Assembly: GCA_049999805.1 (NCBI GenBank)
Contig: JBNGIO010006348.1
Span: forward strand, 571,402 to 591,401
Source of the DNA: Folioceros fuciformis
Lineage: Eukaryota
Reading direction: 5' to 3'
DNA length: 20,000 nt
Part shown: piece by piece, positions 6,906 through 20,000 of the stretch
Position numbering within the stretch: the stretch's first letter is position 1
Layout: every line of letters begins with the position of its first letter
Made by a program: the position numbers and the translations under genes
Notes under the pieces: generated by a model
The model's database searches: none
What the model was told of the DNA's origin: nothing
Seen by the model: the letters and a program-made list of their open reading frames with translations, nothing else

Positions 6906-7255
6906 AGAAACCCATGATGGCGTTGCGAGCTGAGTAGAGATACATAGACATACATATTTATGTCCATACGTGCCTGGCTTAAGCGAACGGACCATTGTCT
7001 ACTGTGTTCCACTCTTTATGTTCGCTTCAATGCCCGGCACGATGATGTGTAATGCTTGTGGGATTGACCTACCAGCCTGCAGGACGGTGCAACAACAGGA
7101 CGAAAGGCAGGATTCCTTACAACTATGCGGCTGTGCCGCTTCCTGTTACTTGTTCTCCGCTGTTGCTGCATTCGTGGGCTTATTCACGGCCATCCACAAT
7201 GCATCGGCTGATTTAAATAAATGATTTCCTCCAAAATTTGCTGTTGCTGTGTCCG

Positions 7256-9754
7256 ATGGGGTCCGTCTCGGTACAGGGTGGATTGCACCTGCATGGCGGG
7301 ACGGCTGGGGGAGAGAAATGCCTGTCGGTGAGGCTGGTTGTTCGGATGGCTTCCTTGCCTGGACCTCGCAAGGGCTTGGCGGCCAGAAATTCGTCTGGCT
7401 GGAAGGCGGTCACAGTGCGCCCTAGTTGGGTTGGATTCGGGGGGGAATGTAGGAAAGGGAGGGGACTGTGCACTGCGGCTGTTCTGCGGAATCCCCGAAG
7501 TCAGCAGGCAGGAGTGACGGTGGAGGCGAAGGAGGAATTGGAGGAGAGGCAGGAGGTGGTGAGGGATGGGGAGCAAACGATTATACCCAACATTTTGAGG
7601 ATTCTTAGGCCTGGCAAGTGGGATTCCGAGGTGGAGAGGACCTTGGCGGAGCTGGACCCCGACTTGAAGCCCCACCATGTGCGGCTGGTGATGCAGAAGG
7701 TGCAGGATGTGGATACTGCGTGGGGATTCTTTAACTGGGCGGGGACATTGCCGGACTACCAGCACACGGAGAGCACGTATGAGCCCATGTTGAGGCACCT
7801 TGGCTACTGCCTGAGGTTTGAGGAGATTTGCGAGCTGCTCAAGGTGATGGATCGGAAAGGGGAGGACGTGCAGAATTACATCTTCCGGATTGTGTTGAGA
7901 TTCGACAGGGAGAAGAATCCTAGCGGGGCGTATAAGGCCTTTTTGGCCCTGACGGGTTGTGGCCTGCAGCCCAGCTCGGTGGTGTGCAATTTTTTGCTCG
8001 GCACTCTGTCCAGACACGGGCTGCATCAGGGGTGCATCGAGGTTTATCACCACATGCTGGCGCGTGGCTTTGTTTTGGACCAGAGAGCGTACAACCGTCT
8101 CATCTACAGCTCCTACAAAGTGGGGTTTATGGATGAGGCGTACAAGCTGTACTTGGAGATGCGGAGGCTGGGTCTGGCTGTTTCCAAGTGGACTTATGTT
8201 GCTCTAATCAATGGTCTTGTGAAGGCAGGTCTTGTCTCTGAAGGCTATGCGATCTTCAAAGAGATGGAGTTGCCTCCGAATCTCCTTGTTTTCAATGGGT
8301 TGATACACGGCCTGGGGAAGGCGGGGCAGTTCAATGAGGCGCTGAGGCTGTTCGGCACCATGGAGGAGTCTGGTGTTTTCCCTGATGTTATTACGTATTC
8401 TACGCTTATGGATCAGCTCTGCAAATCTGGGAAGATCGATGAGGCCTGCGAGCTCTTTGCCGATATGAGGCGGAAAGGGATTCCTCCCAATCTTTTCACG
8501 TACAATGTTATGATTGGAGGGCTGAACAAGGCTGGTCGCCTCCTGGAAGCCACAGGACATTTTGAAGACATGTGTAAGGCAGGTATCTCTCCTGATGTCA
8601 TTACTTACAACTCCCTCATAGATGCAAATGGTAAAGCTGGTCAAATGTTTGAGGCCATAAAACTTTTTGTTGCGATGAGAAAATCTGGAGTCACTCCAGA
8701 CATGGTCACGTACAACAGTGTCATAAGTGGATTTGCAAAAGCGGGGCAATTGGAGCAGTCGTTTCAAACACTGGACATGATGCAGGAGAATGGAATTTAC
8801 CCCAACGCCGTTACGTACAACATTCTAATCTCAGCGCTTGCTAGGACTGGACAGGTAGACCAAGCGCAAGTTATATTGGATGCTATGGCAGAAGCAGGGG
8901 TTCAGCCAAATGTTATCACTTACACGGCCTTGATCGATGGCTTGGGTAAGGCTGGTCAGCCCTCGACTGCTCTGGAGGTTTTCAACAGTCTAAAGGACAA
9001 ACCGATAGCCCCCAATGCAGTATGTTACAGTACAATCATTGGTGTGCTTTGCAAAGCAGGGCAGTATGAGGAGGCTCACAGCATTTTTGAAGACATGAAC
9101 AAGAATGGAGTTGTGCCTGATGCGGTTGCGTTTGGGACACTCATTGTTGGTTTTGGTAAAGGCGGTCAAGTAGATAAGGCTTGTTCTCTGTTTGATGAAA
9201 TGAGGCGAAGAGGTCTTGTTACAGGAGTATTTTCGTATAATGTACTCATTGGTGTGCTCAGCCGCGATGGGCAGATAGAGGAGGCTTTGAGCATTTTCAG
9301 GGATTTGGGTCAGCAAGGCTTACAACCAGATGCTATCACCTACAATACCCTGATAGATGGGCTTGGTAAGGTGGGGCGGTTAGACGAAGCTTGCAAGCTT
9401 TTGAACGAGATGAAGGAACAGAATATGTCAGGGGATGTGGTTTCGTACAGTTCTTTGATCGACAGTCTCGGCAAATTTGGCCAGATTGATAAGGCATACC
9501 AGTTGTTCAAGGATATGCAAGCCGAAGGTCTCAGCCCAAATGTGATAACGTTCTCGTCGCTGATAGATGCCTTTGCCAGGTCCGGACGATTGGATGAAGC
9601 TTGTGTTCTGTTTGAAGAGATGAAAGAGAAGGGGCTTCTTCCGAACGAGATCACGTATGCCAACATCATCAACGGGTTTAACAAGGCTGGTCAAACAAGG
9701 AAAGCGAAGGAGTTCACAGAACGGGAAATGAACCAAGATGTTTTCTTCGTATGA
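7256..9754 (+). CDS. P-class pentatricopeptide repeat protein (~832 aa, ~19 repeats), intronless, probable organellar transit peptide
   Basis: Long ORF with consecutive 35-aa repeats such as PDVITYNSLIDANGKAGQMFEAIKLFVAMRKSGVT, and no E/DYW or SMR domain. The first ATG is 7256 (the ORF-track start at 7238 is TTG). The N-terminus is R/S/G/A-rich with few acidic residues. An alternative ATG lies at 7346. Confidence 0.95.
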   Translation: MGSVSVQGGLHLHGGTAGGEKCLSVRLVVRMASLPGPRKGLAARNSSGWKAVTVRPSWVGFGGECRKGRGLCTAAVLRNPRSQQAGVTVEAKEELEERQEVVRDGEQTIIPNILRILRPGKWDSEVERTLAELDPDLKPHHVRLVMQKVQDVDTAWGFFNWAGTLPDYQHTESTYEPMLRHLGYCLRFEEICELLKVMDRKGEDVQNYIFRIVLRFDREKNPSGAYKAFLALTGCGLQPSSVVCNFLLGTLSRHGLHQGCIEVYHHMLARGFVLDQRAYNRLIYSSYKVGFMDEAYKLYLEMRRLGLAVSKWTYVALINGLVKAGLVSEGYAIFKEMELPPNLLVFNGLIHGLGKAGQFNEALRLFGTMEESGVFPDVITYSTLMDQLCKSGKIDEACELFADMRRKGIPPNLFTYNVMIGGLNKAGRLLEATGHFEDMCKAGISPDVITYNSLIDANGKAGQMFEAIKLFVAMRKSGVTPDMVTYNSVISGFAKAGQLEQSFQTLDMMQENGIYPNAVTYNILISALARTGQVDQAQVILDAMAEAGVQPNVITYTALIDGLGKAGQPSTALEVFNSLKDKPIAPNAVCYSTIIGVLCKAGQYEEAHSIFEDMNKNGVVPDAVAFGTLIVGFGKGGQVDKACSLFDEMRRRGLVTGVFSYNVLIGVLSRDGQIEEALSIFRDLGQQGLQPDAITYNTLIDGLGKVGRLDEACKLLNEMKEQNMSGDVVSYSSLIDSLGKFGQIDKAYQLFKDMQAEGLSPNVITFSSLIDAFARSGRLDEACVLFEEMKEKGLLPNEITYANIINGFNKAGQTRKAKEFTEREMNQDVFFV

Positions 9755-10412
9755 GATACAGCTCCGCTAAACATGTGGATGCGGATGTGTGGGAGTGAGC
9801 TGTTGATGCTCCAGGGGGTCTCTGATGCTTACTGCTGCGCAAGGCTCTCGATCACTGAACTAGAGTTTAGTCAGGTTGTCTTGCTAACTATCCCTCGGGC
9901 GGGGATCTTGTTCAGGGAAACCTGCATGGTATGTATATTAATCATCTCATTGTAGGCACGTGCTCTCTCGAGCACCTGCGTGGAGTGGAACCTGGTGAAT
10001 CTTAAATTCACTTTGTATCTTCTGTCGGGCTTTGAATGTGATCTACTACGAAGTAGCAGCTCACGTAGGGAGATACTCGAGGATGAGGCACACAGAGGCG
10101 ATGACGAAGTTTTGTGATTTCGGGTGAAGTTGAGGATACTCTCGGCATGCATCTGCTCTTAGAGAGTGTCGGCGTTATGTCCGAACCAACTCAAAGGTAT
10201 GAAGTATCTGGTCAATGACGAAGTCTGAGCGTGAAGAGCGTCCGCTCACATATTGGGTATTTCGTAGTCTGAAAAAAGTGTAACAGCCGGTGAACAGGCA
10301 CTTCTGAGAGGCCATGTTAATCTGAATGGCTCGATTCCAGTGCAATCCACATGAACGCCAAACAGCGTCATTCCCAGGCCCTGACATCCCGAGGAAGTGT
10401 AACGTAGCTGTC

Positions 10413-13400
10413 TTAATTGTCATCACCGCAAGAGCATGCCCCTTCTTTGAAATGATGGACACGGTGAGCATCCCTCACGATGATCTCTCGTTTTTCAATG
10501 CTAGAGATAATTTTGGTGCCGCTGTGGCAGTGAAGGCACATTTTGAGGTTCTTGGTCACCAGCAGAGTGCTGCCTTCAGGAGTGTTGAGAAGGCCGAAGG
10601 CTACAGCAAGTTTTTCAGCATGTCCACAAAGAGCATCTTCCTTCTCCTTCTCAGACAGCGATTCCAGGAATAAGTCCATTTGTGGGCCATGGCCGCCCAG
10701 TGTAAGCTGCTGATTCAGGCTCCTTAGCTTCGCTCCTGTATCATCCCTGTTTGATCCCACGGTGAATTCGTGCACCTGGTTATTGACTTCTATCGAAGCT
10801 GAGGCAAACTTCTTCTCGGCACCAGCCCATTTTCTCAAATTTTCTATGTCATCTACATCCTGCCACCTCCCTACCTCAGAATACATGTCAGACATGAGAG
10901 CATAGCACGAGGCATGCTGAGGTTCCATTTGCACAAGCCGGTCAAAGCACCGCCTTCCGACCTCGATGGTATGATATGTTCTGCTGGCGCTGAGCAAACA
11001 TCTCCAGCCGACGCTGTTTTGTGCAAATGGCATTGTTTCCAGCATTAGCTCAGCCTCGTCCAATCGGCCGGACCTGCCGAGGAGATCAACCATGCAGGTG
11101 TAGTGATCAACGCCTGGAACGAGGCCATAAGTCTCTACCATCATTCTGAAGTACTTCTGCCCCTTCTCCACCAGTCCCACATGACTGCACGCTACGAGAA
11201 GACATAGAAAGGTTGCTGCATCCGGGACAACTCCCTGTAGTTGCATTTTGTCAAAGCACTGCATTGCCTTGTCACACCTGTTGTGCTGTCCAAAGCCATT
11301 GATCAGGGCAGTCCAAGTCACCACGTCTCTCTTTGACATTCCGTCGAATACTGATTGAGCCTCCTCCAGGCTCCCACACTTTGCATACATGTCGACTAGG
11401 CTGTTTGCCACAATGAGATCTACTAGCAGCCCCTTCTCCACAACTTGTGTGTGTACCCGCTTGCCCTCCTGGATCGCCCCCACACTGCCACATGCCTTCA
11501 GAATATTCACAAACGTAGTCACATTGGGCACCACCCCTTCCTGCTGCATTCTTGCAAACAGTGTGAAGGCTTCCTGGCCAACACAATGCTGGGCATATCC
11601 TGCAATCATGCTGTTCCAAGTGATAACATCTTTGGACGTCATTGTATCAAACACTCTGCGGGCATCCTCCAGGCTCCCGCACTTCACAAACATTTCCAGG
11701 AGGCTATTCTTTATTAGCAAGTCTTCAACAAGTCCCAAATCCAAGAGCTGGGCATAGATCCGTTTGCCATCCTGCAGAGCACCTGTGTTGCCACATGCCT
11801 TCAGAATGCTTAAAAACGTTACGCTGTCAGGTCTGTTCCCATCCTCCTGCATGCTCGTGAGGAGTTGAAGAGCCGCAAGAGTATGTCCGTGCTGGGCATA
11901 GCCTGAAATCATGGCACTCCAGGTTACAGTATCTCTTGCTGGTAATCTATCAAACACTTTCCTGGCATCTACAAGGCTACCGCACTTGACGTACATGTCC
12001 ATTAAGGCACTGCCCACAAAACCATCAGTCTCAAGTCCTATTTCCACTATCTGAGCATGGATCTGTCTGCCTTCGTTTATGGCTCGGGCACTGGTACAAG
12101 CCTTCAACACGCTCAAAAACGTAGCTTTGTCTGGAGTTATTCTGTCTTCGCGCATCCCTGCAAACACCTTAAGGGCTTCTTCACCGAGCCCCTGACTAGC
12201 ATATCCTGTAATGATGGTGTTCCACGTTACTACGTTCTTGGAGGACATTCTGTCAAACATCCTTCGCGCATCCTCCAAGCTCCCACATTTTGCATACATG
12301 TTCAGGAGAGCACTCCCAACAAAAACGTTTGACTCAAACCCGTTATCAGTTACATCAGCATGCACTAGTTGTCCGGATTTCAGATCTATGGCCATGGTAC
12401 AGGCTTTAAGGACAGTCACATACAGGTACGAATCCGCTCGAATACCAGATTTTCGCATGCGGTCATAGAGCTTTATAGCATGCTCAGCTTGCCCATGCTC
12501 AGCATGCGCTGAGATGATTGAAGTCCATACAAATGCAGTTGGGGCGGCCAACTTCATAAACACTTCATCTGCCTCATTTAGGCTTCCCAATGTAGCGTAC
12601 ATACGAACGAGGTGATTTGCCAGAAACGTGTTGGTCTCATATCCACGTCTCACAGTAAGATTATGAACTCGCCGTCCGACTGGCAAATTCTTCTGTACTA
12701 TGCACCCCTTTATAAGACAGTATATCATCTCCCTGGTGATGAAAGTTCCTTCCTCAGCCATCAGATCCACAGCTTCAAAAGCCTTAAACACCTCGCCATC
12801 TTCACAAAGTTTTCTCCATGGAATAGAGCGCAAAGAATTGCACACATCCACGCTGCGAGGCAAGCAGGTTAGGACAAGGAAGTGCGGAGGCGGCTAAGTC
12901 AGAGAACCCGAAATCCCCCTGAAGAGTATTACTGCAAAACTGTCGAGAGCTGTAGAAGAAACTGCACCTCACAGGTTCAACCCCCGATGAAACACCAGAA
13001 GGCAATGGAACTGAATTTGGTACTCTAGATGGCTTCTGCTGCCGAAGGCCCATGTCCTTTACCCATCCAACTTCTAACTTAAACCGCTGGCCTTCGTCCA
13101 CGAAGGTCAGGTCCGCGAGGGGTCTCTGCAGAATTTCTCAGGCTCGTTACTAAGATCTCTATGCCATATAACCCACGTTCCATCAGCGAAGAACGAATCT
13201 TACCTTGCTCGGGCTATTTCCCCTCCATCCTCGCAATGCATTTTGATCATCTGGAAGCCAAACCAAGTTCCGAGGTCAGAAAATCAACGTGAGCTGGGCA
13301 AGCCAAATGAAAGCATACAGACCACTCACCCAGGGTGCTTCCAAGCTTCTGGCCTTCGGAATGATCTCGGAGACTGGAGAAGCTTAGGTACCCTTCTTCC

Positions 13401-13768: not shown

Positions 13769-16700
13769 ATGAAGACCTGTTTGAAGCAACGGAAATTCAT
13801 CGCTTGTCTTCCTGCGGAGGCATGGTGCAGGCGGCAATCAAGTATGCAGAGTCGCGTGAAGCGTAGGCAAATCTGTGGGCATTGATCCTCCGGTTGTTGC
13901 TCCTGTCGTAAATTCTTAGGACCTCACCGTTCCAGCTGGCTTGCAGATGACCTGGACAAGAACAACGCAGTTGTGAACATATCATTTGCTGATCCATCGC
14001 AGTTTTGGAACAGGAGGTCGGGCAAGGTGAATTGGTTTAGGTCTTAGCTGTCTCCCAATCTCTTTTGGAAGGTGTTGCCTGGTCGTTAGGTGGCAGTTGA
14101 CCCTGGGTGATCACCACAGACAGAGCTCAAGCATCTAGACTTCGTGCACAGGACAACAAACGATGGGTTGTGGCTGGACTCATTGTCAGTTCCCACCAGC
14201 AAATCGAGGAATACATTATCTGCTGGTGCGGCATCTATCCGAGAAGATGGAGGCCATGCTGGTGCAGCATCTATCCGGGAAGATGGAGGTCTTGCTGGAG
14301 ACCATCCGCATGCCGTCAGGTATGTTCACAGTGTGCACTCCTTTAGGTGTGGAGAGACTGAACTTCTAGCCTTCTTGCCACCACCGTTCCTAAATTGCGC
14401 TGTTTGATTTTGAATTTCAAGGAGGGCATGTAGGGGTGCAAGGGCTGAAGGTCCTTCAGGAGCTTGGAGCAGTTTTTATAAGACGGGACAGGTTGATGAG
14501 GTATTCCAAGCTTTGGACCTCATGCACCGGGAGGGCCTTGTGGTTTCTGTAGACTTGTTGTACCAGCTCCTCAAATGGTGCATTGCACAGAAGGACCAGG
14601 CTGCTGGGAGACGTGTCCATGCCATCACTGTGAGGAATGGGCATGAGGCAAACGCATTTCTGGGGAACCACATTATTCGCATGTATGCATCTCACGGGGA
14701 GTTGCAGAAAGCGAGTGAAGTCTTCCGCAAACTTCAACCCCCCAATGTATTTGCTTGGAGTGCAATTATCTCGGCCCATGTGGATCATGGGAAAGCAACG
14801 CGGGCTATAGAATTGTATAAGCAACTGCGGCAAACACCGGTGCCGCCTGATGACTATACCCTCGTTGCTGTTCTCAAAGCCTGTGCAAGTTCGTCGGATT
14901 TGACATCAGGAAAGCTAGTTCATGGTGATGTGGTGAAGAATGGATCCGAGTCTAATGTGTTCGTTGGTAACACATTAGTCGACATGTATTGTAAGTGTGG
15001 GAGTCTGGAGGATGCTCGCACAGTGTTTGATAAGCTCCAGACCAGAGATGTGGTGACATGGAATGCAATGATTGCTGGGTATTCTCTTCATGGGAATTGG
15101 CAGGAGGTCTTCAAGTTGTTTCAAGAAATGCAAGAGCAAAGTTTCACGCCAGATGATGTCACATTCGTCACCATTTTGAAAGCGTGTGCTAGCACGGGAA
15201 ATGTTCAGTTCGGCAGGCAAGCTCACAAGGACCTTGTGACTTGGGGAGCGGTGGCACATATCTCTGTGAGAAGTGCACTGGTGGACATGTATGCCAAGTG
15301 CCAGAGCCTTGAGGAGGCAAGAACAGTCTTTGATAGCATGCGAACAAAAGACGGTCCGATATGGAGTGCCATGATTGCAGGATATGCTCAGCATGGCTCG
15401 GGGGAAGAAGCCCTCAGGCTTTATTCAAAAATGCGGCAGGATGGCATAACTGCTAAAAAGGCCACTGTTGTCCACATCCTCAAAGTGTGTGGGACTTTGG
15501 GATGTATATTGGATGGCAAGGCTGTGCACTCCGACATCATGGAAATGAGACTAGAAGCCGATGTGTTCGTCGGGAGTGCTTTGATTGACATGTATTGTGA
15601 ATGTGGAGCCGTGGTGGATGCTCAAGCAGTGTTTGATGGACTCCCAACCAGAGATATAGCAGTTTGGAATACCCTGATCTCAGGATATGCGCACCAAGGA
15701 CTTGGTGAAGAGGCTCTCAATGTTTATCACAGGATGTTGCAAGAGGGCGTGACACCAGACAAGCTTACCTTTGTAAGCGTTCTCAACGCGTGCGCTTGTG
15801 TAGGAGCCATACATGAGGGCAAGTGGATCCATACCCAGGTGTTAAAACGTGGACTTCAGGTGGATCTCTTCGTTGCGAGCACCTTGATGGACATGTATGC
15901 CAAGTGCGGGAACCTGAACGATGCTCACAAAGTGTTCGAAAGTTTGCCCAGAAGAAATGTGGTAGCATGGAATATTATGATCGCAGCATACGGTCAACAA
16001 GGGTTGGGAGCCACGGCCCTCAAACTGTATACAACCATGCAACATGATGGTATCGTGCCAGACAAGGTCACGTTTGTTACCAGTCTTCGAGCGTGTGGCA
16101 GCACTAAGGCTGTTCAAATGGGCAAGCAAATTCACTCACAAATTGTGGAAAGAGGGCTAGAATCAGACATGTTTGTTGTAAGTGCCCTTATGGACATGTA
16201 CGGAAAATGCGGGTGTCCTAGGGATGCCCGCAAGGTGTTTGACAGCTTGCGGGCACGTGACGTTGTGGCATGGAACATAATCTGTGCAGCATACGCGCAA
16301 AATGGGCTTGGTCGGGATGCCATTCAACTTTTCAAAAGCATGCAGCTGGATAACATTACACCAGATCAGACCACGTTTGTGACAGTTCTCAAGGCATGTT
16401 CAAGCACTGGGGCGATACAGGAAGGGCAGCAAATTCATTCCCAGATTGTCGGAAGAGGACTTGAAGCTGATACCGTTGTCGGGAATGCCCTCATAGATAT
16501 GTACACCACCTTTGGGAGACTGGAGGAGGCTCGACAGGTCTTTGAAACAGTGCCAGCCAAGGATATAGTGACATGGAGTGTTATGATCGCTGGATATGCT
16601 CAACATGGCCTTGGTCAGGAGGCCCTTGCACTCAACAGGAAGATGCAGCGGAGTGGTGTGATCCCAAACAACAGTGTCATCTTTGCAGGCCTTCTGAAAG

Positions 16701-17791
16701 CATGTTGCAGCGTCGGCGCCTTACAGGAGGGAAGGCGGACACATGCGCAGATTCTTGAGCAGGGGATGGAAGAAGATTTGTTTGTTGCAAGCACCCTGGT
16801 AGACATGTATGTGAGGTGTGGGAATCTAGAGGATGCACAGACAGTTTTCGACCGTTTGCCATGTAAAGACGTTGTGGCATGGACTGCTCTGATCAATGGA
16901 TATGGCCGGCACCACGACTGGAAGACGGCATTGGGATTATTTGACAGGATGCAAGAACAGGACTTGGAGCCCGACTCTGCAACTTTCACATCGCTGCTCT
17001 CAAGCTGCAGCCATCTGGGCTTGGTTGCGGAGGGTCAGAAGTATTTCAGGATGATGGAGGATTGTCACTCCATCACGCAGACTGTAGAACATTACACGGC
17101 GATGGTGGATCTGCTTGGCAGGGCAGGTCTGTTTGATGAAGCTCAAAGTCTGTTAGGATATACCCCCTTGTCAGGGCTCGGTGCGGGATGGAGGGCTTTG
17201 CTAAGCGCTTGCAAGAAGTTCTGCAACGTGGAACTCGGAAGGTTGTGTTTTAATCGGCTCGTGGAAATGGAACCTGAACAGGCTGTTGCGTACGTGTTAA
17301 TGTCAAGCATCTATGAGAATGCAGACAGGTGGGAGGACGTTGATGTCATTAAGAAGATGAGAAAGCGGGCAGGTGCGAACAAAATGCCAGCACTGGCGTC
17401 CATTCAGGTGGATGGTAAGGTGCATGAGTTCGTTGTGGGCGATAAAGGATTCCAGCAAGCAGATGATGTTTACAGCAAGTTGATGAGTTTGAATGAGCGG
17501 ATGAAGGAGGAAGGGCATGTGGCCCATACCGGCCCGGTACTGGAACCAGTGTCTGAAGCTGAAAGAGAGGAGGCTCTGTGCGGGCATGCTGAGAAGCTAG
17601 CTATAGCTTATGGTCTTCTGAATACACGAGAAGGCACACCCTTGTTAGTCGTTAAGAATCTGAGGATGTGCCAGCATTGTCACGACGGCAGCAAGTTCAT
17701 CTCAAGGACTGAAGGGCGTGAAATAGTAGTTAGAGATGCTCATTGTGTGCACCATTTCAAGGACGGCTTTTGTTCTTGCGGAGATCAATAA
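13769..17791 (+). CDS. PLS-class PPR with E1-E2-DYW:KP-type domain (candidate U-to-C RNA editing factor), ~1240-1247 aa; exons 13769-13862 (or -13841), 13947-14026, 14120-14319, 14422-17791
   Basis: The main exon encodes L-S-(P-L-S)x7-P2-L2-S2 (26 repeats), E1, E2, then KMPALASIQV...GHAEKLA...KNLRMCQHCH...HHFKDGFCSCGDQ. The frame is open upstream of the TTG ORF start back to the acceptor at 14421. Three GT-AG introns join in frame to the basic leader MKTCLKQRKFIACLPAEAWCRRQSS. The main exon is near certain; the first exon is the least certain. Confidence 0.9.
14221..14298 (+). repeat. In-frame 36-bp tandem duplication in predicted exon 3 (AGAASIREDGGH / AGAASIREDGGL)
   Basis: Units at 14221-14256 and 14257-14292, plus a partial TGCTGG. 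Confidence 0.92.
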
Positions 17792-17861
17792 TCTTCTACC
17801 TTCCTGTGCTTGTGAGAGTAGTCCGGGATTGACTGTGTACCTGTGTTTCATGCCACCAACC

Positions 17862-20000
17862 TCAAGGAAACGGGCCTCGCAGCAAGCCATACGCAGACAC
17901 GTAGTGCTCCTTCTCCGCCTTCTCTTTGAGGAGGCGACGTGAAGGCTCTGCTGAGCCTTCCCCCGTCCGACCGCTGTGATCACTGTCGTCCGCAATGCGC
18001 ATGGGCGCTTGAAGGCGTGATTCCAGATTGCGAACAACTCCCTCCGGATTTCTGCTGAACGCCTGCCACACTACAAAGTTGGTGCGAAAATGGATGAAAA
18101 GACTTTGATTCCTTAGCTTCCAGAGCGAGGACTCACCGCGATATTTGCCGCATCCGACACTACTTTAAGGCGAGTATAGTCCATCAAATAGTTCTTCTTG
18201 CTGCGCGCTTCGTTCGCCATGCTGCTACTGGCCTCCATACTCTTGATCTTTATGTTGGCGGCTCCTAGTTCCGCTAATGCTGTCTGATGATCATCCCATC
18301 AAGACGGAAACATCTTCTTGCTGTGCTCAGGCGAGTCATGCCAAACACCTGACATACCATCAAATTACCTGCAGGCTGCTCTCCGCTATTTGCAGGCTAC
18401 GCACTTTTTGAGCGATGTCCATACCAAGTGCTTTGACAGTGACACTGTGACTGTTTCTCTCGGCTTGCAAGTTGTTCCTTTCTAGACATTCACCAGCAAT
18501 GTTATGTCTAAGCTCCATCCCACTTTGGAATACGTCAATACAAAACTGCTGTCAGTCAGGTGGGTTTGGGACCTCCGTACCAACCTGCACACACCCTTTT
18601 GTATGCTTCATGGCCCTGAGATAGAGCGTCTTCCAGCTTCCCAATTTGACGTTGTGAACGAGCTAGGTCTTCTTTCGTCCTTGCAGCGTCGAAAGCGTTG
18701 GCTTTCAATCTCTCCGCATCAGCCTCCAGTGCTCTTAATTTCTGCTGTAGTTTCGCCACCTCTTCTGAAGCCGCTTGCAGCTCTGCCGTCCTGCCAACTT
18801 ATTTGAAAACACCACAAGTTCAGCAAGTAGCATTTCAATTCATGCTGTAGCTGTGTCCAATCACGGAAACCAGCCATTCAAGGGTTTTCTGGTAATCACT
18901 CAGTTCCTCTGACGGCCGCTTGTTTGAATCCGTAGCGTCGTTAAGTTCCTTCAACAGTTGATTATACGACTACAGCACAATGACCTGCCCGTATCAGTCA
19001 CCTACCCGTTCAAAGAATCAAATGCGCAAGGCAGTTGTACGCACGCACCTGTCCGCCTTGACGACATACACTCACCTGTGTACACAGTTCCAAAAAGTTG
19101 AATAATGAACCTGAGCGTTTGCAGCCTCGTCTTCGGCATGCTTCGTTCTCAATCTAGCAAGCTCAGCCTCGGCTTCTTGGTCCTTTTTTATCAACTCCCC
19201 TTTGCAATTTCTATTTTCCTTCTCTAAAGCAGCAACACTAGCTTCCAGTGCTGACACTTTGCTGTTAGAAGCTTCTAACTCCTTCTGTAATTGTTCAGCT
19301 TTTTGGCGAAGGGCTTCAGCATCTTTGTGAAGTTGCTCAGCGGCTAGTTTCTGTCTCGCCGCGATTTCTTCTGAATCCTGTCGTGCTTTGTTCAGTTCAT
19401 CCTGCAGTTTTTGGATCGTAGCAGCATAGCTATCTGCTTTTTCTGATGCCTGCCTCAGAGCTTCCTTCATCTTTGCCAGATCTTCCTGGAGACGGGACCT
19501 TTCCTCAGCAGCAGAGCTGGCAGCCTTCTCCATTTGTTCCTTAAACTTAGCAAGCTCTTCCTGGAGGCGGGATCGTTCCTCGGCAGCAGTGCTAACAGAC
19601 TTCTGCAGCTGTTCAGCTAAATTCTTAAGCTTCTCCTCGAGGGCCGCGTTCTGTTCCTGAGCTTTGACCAATTCACCAGTGAACCTCCTCACTTCAGACT
19701 CGTCTTTGCTCCTTTGTTCTCCCATGCTCTCCTGGTTCTTCAATGCTTGTGCCAACTGGGACTTTCCATCTGCAACATCCGACAGCAGCTTATCTCTCTC
19801 GGTCACGAGCGCCTGCAGCTTGGCTTCCAATGAAGCAATTTGGCCCTTCGATTTGTTTAATTCATCAGACTCTTTGCCCCTTTGCTCCGCCAAGTTCTTC
19901 AATGCCTGTGTCAACTGGCTCTTCAGAGCCGCAATCTCCGCCTGCAGCTGGTTCCTCTCTGCCACAAGCGCCTGCGTCGCTGCTTCAGCTTCAGCCAACT
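17862..20000 (-). CDS. 3' part of a long coiled-coil protein gene, family not recognised; exons >20000-19111, 18969-~18871, ~18790-18585, 18481-18369, 18283-18137, 18062-17862
   Basis: E/K/Q/A/L-rich heptad sequence continues across GT-AG introns (ANAQ|SYNQLLKEL; YKRVCA|ERNNLQAE; ESSLQ|TALAEL; ANIA|AFSRNP...RGPFP*). The phase of the junction between ~18871 and ~18790 could not be resolved. The 5' end is outside the window. Confidence 0.8.
19461..19970 (-). repeat. Intragenic repeats in the coiled-coil exon (75-nt and 159-nt periods)
   Basis: S(T/S)AAEERSRLQE(E/D)LAKxKE occurs twice (TCTTCCTGGAG at 19481 and 19556). LVxER...KSQLxQALKN occurs twice (TTCTTCAATGC at 19736 and 19895). Confidence 0.85.

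Follow-up and report, generated by a model that had tools for sequence, protein, structure and literature searches.

Judged from its sequence, a PPR gene of Folioceros fuciformis whose C-terminal deaminase-like domain stops after Asp-Gln, one residue short, is an intact and ordinary member of the large hornwort KP family that carries a small derived truncation. It lies in a 20,000-nucleotide stretch of contig JBNGIO010006348.1, called the window below. The open frame, 14414-17791 on the plus strand, encodes 1125 aa, with the DYW:KP domain at its C-terminal end, and contains matches to PPR, the E motif, and DYW_deaminase (4e-33). The gene product (the DQ protein) has the layout of a PLS-class PPR-DYW protein, with a P-L-S array, P2-L2-S2, E1-E2, and DYW in order, and is most likely a U-to-C editor, perhaps weakened; its organelle import, target, activity, and editing direction are what we infer from these features. 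The features are as follows.

13928..14319, plus strand: predicted upstream exons (up to 14026, and 14120-14319; introns 14027-14119 and 14320-14421), by prediction, with the frame of the main open frame kept
14522..17179, plus strand: PLS-class PPR array, 8 P-type and 8 S1-type motifs located, terminal P2-L2-S2, by motif search
17180..17380, limits approximate, plus strand: E1-E2 motifs, by motif search
17381..17788, plus strand: DYW:KP deaminase-like domain of 136 residues with a D-Q end, by translation, domain match, alignment, and model
17381..17398, plus strand: KP box variant KMPALA (KKPALA in the orthologue P0002), by translation and alignment
17438..17458, plus strand: gate segment GDKGFQQ, full length, without SHP, by alignment
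17585..17593, plus strand: HAE, with His69 (Zn1 ligand), Glu71 (catalytic), and the KP-type Ala, by translation and alignment
17654..17656, plus strand: Lys92, equivalent of KP6 Lys88 and OTP86 Lys915, by alignment
17669..17683, plus strand: CQHCH, with the Zn1 cysteines and His101 (Zn2 ligand), by translation and alignment
17750..17779, plus strand: HHFKDGFCSC, with Zn2 ligands His124, Cys131, and Cys133, by translation and alignment
17780..17791, plus strand: G-D-Q-stop (TAA), Asp retained, Gln in the middle position, final residue absent, by translation and run X2
10413..12893, minus strand: neighboring divergent PLS-PPR DYW:KP gene with a DDN end, not a close paralogue of the DQ gene

Translation of 17381-17791 returned every motif quoted in the sequence-only reading (KMPALASIQV, GDKGFQQ, GHV, HAEKLA, CQHCH, and HHFKDGFCSCGDQ), with TAA at 17789-17791. 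The shortening by one residue (CSCGDQ-stop) was also as described, and domain positions 2-135 align to 9KFX without a gap. That the domain is a natural DYW:KP variant is upheld by its KP-type residues and its placement within the KP clade. The KP-type marks are HAE (Ala in HxE), a Met before CxxC, and the equivalent of Lys88, and the N-terminal box is of the KP type instead of PG, with the second Lys replaced by Met in KMPALA; the PG box, HSE, and terminal D-Y-W that define DYW:PG domains are absent. Sequence mapping on OTP86 numbering places Zn1 at H69/C97/C100 with E71, and Zn2 at H101/H124/C131/C133. Glu71, Lys92, Arg95, and the Asp135-Lys105 pair are all present, so that the equivalents of OTP86 Glu894, Lys915, Arg918, Asp958, and Lys928 and all ligands of both zinc sites are kept, while the equivalent of Trp960 is gone. 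An AlphaFold model of the domain (mean pLDDT 87.5; 76 in the last block) matched 9KFX with an E value of 1.9e-17 and a TM score of 0.89, and TM scores against 9KFX, OTP86, and DYW1 ranged from 0.73 to 0.89; the model contains no zinc and gives no measure of Zn2 stability.

The domain thus shares its fold, both zinc sites, and the Asp-Lys pair with the DYW:PG C-to-U editors OTP86 (7O4E/7O4F), DYW1 (7W86), and the consensus PPR-DYW protein (9KFX), but lacks their PG box and terminal Trp and has HAE for HSE. At the PPR interface the DQ protein has Cys-Val where canonical editors have Arg-Phe. With hornwort DYW:KP proteins, of which DRH and GRP ends are described variants (PMC9478123), it shares the PLS-E1-E2-DYW layout, the KP-type box, HAE, the Met before CxxC, Lys88, and GHV, and the domain is 57-68% identical to the DYW:KP paralogues in its genome; it differs from the DRH and GRP proteins in an end one residue shorter, a gate of canonical length, and a branch outside their clade. 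The catalytic set, including the lysine for U-to-C, is that of the designer U-to-C editors KP2, KP3, and KP6 (PMC9478123, PMC11845758, PMC11332814). The designer KPs discussed in these sources have three terminal residues (D-M-F in KP6, by primer), whereas the DQ protein is natural and known from sequence alone.

The gate segment was correctly described as full length yet without SHP: in the gapless alignment to 9KFX, GFQ takes the place of SHP. The stretch running from the HEF-motif Phe to the catalytic His has 52 residues, the same number that canonical enzymes have. A count by script over 146 KP domains of the same genome gave 52 residues in 2 and 48-49 in 121; a few longer counts are partly due to a misplaced anchor. 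The majority of KP paralogues lack 3-4 residues at this point, but the gate of P0002 is also full length (GEKRFSE), so that the long gate predates the short end. A KP domain of 136 residues is already known in the designer KP4, which is inactive (PMC9478123); it too has a full-length gate, with xHP where the DQ domain has GFQ.

Four of the 11 listed sequencing runs were compared with the window (X2, X4, X5, and X6). X2, from another sample and another study under the same species label, gave one contig that matches 16900-18061 letter for letter, with 0 differences and 0 gaps; since this independent run is identical, the stop is not an error of assembly or sequencing, and a sequencing error was rejected as its source. 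X4 covers 17352-17616 only, short of the stop. None of the listed matching runs is recorded as RNA. No joint with splice-site ends was found near the stop in the four runs compared, and splicing past it was set aside for lack of a supporting joint there. In related organism C (X5 and X6, one sample), one contig per run spans the region, differing at 112 and 81 letters, respectively. Nine insertions listed at 17803-17828, all 3' of the stop, account for all 17 of the gap letters in the X6 contig; hence no coding indel separates 16900-17791 from organism C. Among the differences listed there is no substitution at 17685-17800, and organism C likely has the same stop. The 38 listed coding differences (of 81) between the window and organism C affect 17 codons synonymously and 16 non-synonymously, which hints, if roughly, at purifying selection. 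TAA is followed by TCT, which is no stop codon, so that the short end may have arisen by codon loss or by a nonsense mutation with later decay.

P0002, a protein of a public assembly and the top match of a C-terminal search (66% over the region), is in register with the DQ protein and collinear, with 456/834 residues identical (55%) and 90/136 in the DYW domain. In a reciprocal search P0002 best matched the DQ gene within the genome, at 1029 versus 910 bits (54 of 2070 candidates scored). It shares five of the last six proximal P/S code pairs with the DQ gene, the sixth being ND versus NN; the 55 other fully aligned KP proteins share 0-3. Read by the rules quoted in PMC6397227, the array of the DQ protein predicts the target C G n Y U n G R n G U n A U n G Y n Y A n G G at positions -28 to -6. 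A 40-row tree, which omits the terminal residues and is rooted on 3 canonical DYW rows, joined the two as sisters at 99/97, with the paralogue L002 next at 98/98; support for the pair was 87 in a FastTree on 209 rows. The DQ gene is nested in a 36-row KP clade at 100/99 in the 40-row tree, with KP placement also in the 209-row FastTree, where it falls outside a 151-row DRH/GRP clade (support 97); its own end is neither DRH nor GRP. P0002 thus resembles the DQ protein in array register, proximal PPR code, and gate length and differs in its normal tripeptide, DYV. L002, the nearest paralogue in the genome, ends in DHR, and together these two ends indicate that the short D-Q end was derived on this lineage. 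The end of only one orthologue was read, that of P0002, whose cluster has 1 member; a search at shorter length (61 matches) and a profile search (best 120 of 7741) yielded no further orthologue. The sequence-only reading had proposed that a normal tripeptide in orthologues would mark the stop as a private mutation or a sequencing error. The outcome is divided: the orthologue does have the normal tripeptide, but the stop recurs in X2, which excludes a sequencing error and a change confined to one sample.

Other loci in the genome depart from the common pattern in different ways. L080 (C6303, about 72525-72950, minus strand) combines HAE, as in KP domains, with an SHP gate, NLRVC, and a DQW end, as in canonical enzymes, and sits on a long branch between the PG rows and the KP clade. 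Branching outside the KP clade, it was discarded as a source of the D-Q end; on its sequence it is a better candidate intermediate than the DQ gene. L036, L041, and L044 have canonical HSE/DYW domains with the PG box and gate swapped for unrelated charged sequence, and are possible stand-alone or donor DYW proteins.

The expectation that comparison with the DDN neighbor would separate the determinants of editing direction did not hold. The two domains are identical at 80/132 aligned residues and differ at 52/132, and the DDN gene groups with P0008 and P0017 (97 in the 209-row FastTree; 91/90 in the 40-row tree), in a clade other than that of the DQ gene. Its gate is shorter, and 3/6 proximal PPR codes are common to both. 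With that many differences and another clade, the DDN gene cannot isolate an effect of the terminus; trees, identity, and PPR codes excluded it as a sister or control. A P-class PPR gene (7217-9754, plus strand) lies tail to tail with it, and about 10 kb holds three PPR genes (7217-12893 for the first two).

Downstream lies a convergent coiled-coil gene on the minus strand, with a 74-base CT..AC intron within 18061-18136. This intron is skipped in the same X2 contig that carries the D-Q stop; since that contig spans both, overlapping 3' ends are suggested, and the skip fits an RNA origin of the contig. The genome assembly (87 Mb, 7240 contigs) is fragmented and has 606 DYW candidates, with numerous DRH and GRP ends. 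It gave 0 matches to rbcL and one fragment of cox1, with a stop, and hence holds no organelle genome; the cox1 fragment (L185 on C1915) carries an in-frame TAG and is probably a nuclear copy of mitochondrial DNA.

The DQ gene probably begins with a PDF-like motif, encoded by the predicted upstream exons with their two GT-AG introns. The motif is degenerate (35 bits against a profile from paralogues), and several first-exon models are possible. By its Pro-Asp-Phe signature it may be of the OSB type. That signature is described for OSB single-stranded-DNA-binding proteins (PMC6963530). Degenerate and, by prediction, intron-split in the DQ gene, the motif is intact and unsplit in many paralogues (e.g., L186-L215). 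Querying the genome with the corresponding part of P0007 brought up 398 candidates, 150 of which were scored as matches; about 40 of the 150, matched by eye, share contig, strand, and frame length with DYW:KP matches. In 30 fetched loci, all 15 motif hits picked up by pattern lie upstream of PLS repeats. The motif is also N-terminal to canonical DYW proteins of the moss Ceratodon and the clubmoss Diphasiastrum, and a link with U-to-C editing was rejected on that ground. An ESM Atlas search with the segment returned no usable match, and literature searches found no paper on a fusion of the PDF motif with PLS-PPR proteins.

How unusual the short end is was assessed within the genome's own family. 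For this, 145 of 150 scored DYW matches (606 candidates) were fetched together with the window; after identical domains were collapsed and L088, which lacks the last zinc Cys, was dropped, 142 distinct HAE domains remained. Of these KP domains from a ranked search, 138 have the normal length, 1 is one residue short (the DQ gene), 1 is two short (L019), and 2 are extended (L024 and L150 carry such tails). Length at the KP C terminus thus seems constrained. The 138 normal-length domains carry 53 different tripeptides (DRH in 42, GRP in 27) and 18 different last residues, among them Gly, Ala, Ser, Asp, Glu, and Lys. Matching for D-x-x-stop, a pattern that TGG can satisfy as well, found 171 cases, of which 100 were listed, compared with 5 in the control. 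For ends lacking one residue the corresponding figures were 59 and 23; among these 59 the DQ gene is the sole G-D-x-stop, and L042 (KSR) and L081 (GSL) are further short DYW ends. Aberrant KP ends elsewhere in the genome are thus CGV-stop in L019, GSL-stop in L081, and KSR-stop in L042. Outside it, P0024 of Adiantum nelumboides ends in CSCD and P0135, which may be cut off, in GDR. In these sequences the short end is uncommon but recurrent, the identity of the last residue appearing weakly constrained and its presence mostly kept. Gerke et al. 2020 and Gutmann et al. 2020 are reported to be the first descriptions of hornwort DYW:KP proteins and may already list short KP ends; among the titles and abstracts listed in our literature searches, none dealt with a natural KP protein lacking one residue.

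The statement that the terminal residues matter in canonical DYW enzymes agrees with PMC7611903 and PMC6397227. The terminal Trp960 of OTP86 stacks on a Zn2 His, and its change to Ala reduced editing (PMC7611903); the same change abolished editing by PPR65 (PMC6397227). The terminal Trp is part of the PPR-DYW interface, where its carbonyl may contact Arg13 of S2 (PMC13324415), a residue retained in the DQ protein. The middle terminal position, occupied here by Gln136, tolerates change in OTP86 (PMC7611903) and 9KFX (PMC13324415) but not in PPR65 (PMC6397227). KP termini are known to be diverse (PMC11845758). Four of seven designer KPs showed no editing, a DRH type and the 136-residue KP4 among them (PMC9478123), and PMC11845758 gives the activity of natural KP proteins as unknown, with none shown active.

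We think it reasonably likely that the DQ protein is an organelle U-to-C editor using the Lys88 route, in which the loss of one residue, specific to its lineage, is tolerated. The nuclear gene would encode a PLS-PPR DYW:KP factor for RNA editing in an organelle, whose PPR array would bind one organellar transcript and set the domain on a uridine. Conversion to cytidine would use zinc, Glu, and Lys88 in the way put forward for the designer KPs (PMC11332814, PMC11845758), in which Lys88 is needed for U-to-C (PMC11845758). The last codon would have been lost after the split from the P0002 lineage, removing a residue that packs on a Zn2 histidine and no metal ligand, as tolerated drift at a loosely constrained position. 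With every metal ligand in place, activity is most likely retained, though perhaps at a reduced level.

An assembly error, a private allele, or splicing around the stop is a hardly credible account of the short end: the assembly is fragmented and the end stands alone as G-D-x-stop among the pattern matches, but X2 is identical across the region and no splice-ended joint lies near the stop in the four runs. Loss of the last residue may instead have crippled catalysis, the protein being kept for RNA binding or recruiting, or decaying after loss of its target site. The stacking and interface roles of the canonical Trp, whose mutation reduces or abolishes editing, speak for this, as do the normal length of 138/142 paralogues, the Met in the KP box, and the short-ended L042, which looks damaged elsewhere as well. 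We nevertheless regard it as unlikely, given that all catalytic and metal residues and the entire frame are intact, that the listed changes against organism C lean synonymous with no coding indel in 16900-17791, and that residues as different as Gly, Ala, Ser, Asp, Glu, or Lys occupy the last position in KP paralogues.

The protein could also edit C-to-U or both ways, as part of an early-branching hornwort KP lineage that keeps the gate at its canonical length and, in P0002, ends almost canonically in DYV. The position outside the large DRH/GRP clade and a PG-like gate length found in 2/146 KP domains of the genome point in this direction, and so does designer KP6, which works both ways and is pushed toward C-to-U by single changes, the last residue included (PMC11845758). 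Countering this are the KP marks (HAE, Met at CxxC-1, and Lys88), the nesting in the KP clade, and the small effects of single gate substitutions reported in PMC7611903 and PMC13324415; we judge it unlikely. More ambitiously, the DQ and DYV orthologues might be a natural pair acting on the same organellar site, the DQ protein fully active without the Trp960 position and its lineage, unlike DRH/GRP, editing C-to-U or both ways and so bridging the two kinds of editor as a natural intermediate. This we hold to be improbable.

Among these readings, the U-to-C editor with a tolerated loss is the one we favor. That the terminus may tune the direction of DYW:KP enzymes is an idea already in print through KP6 F133H, where a change of the last residue gave C-to-U at 38-40% against U-to-C at 7-14% (PMC11845758). 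A useful by-product is the pair of DQ and DYV orthologues, which share a predicted target and make a better comparison than the DDN gene. In a family that already varies widely at this position, and with a one-codon deletion of KP6 testing the same thing, the wider point is a modest one: if the DQ protein is active, the last residue, needed in canonical enzymes, would be dispensable in KP enzymes.
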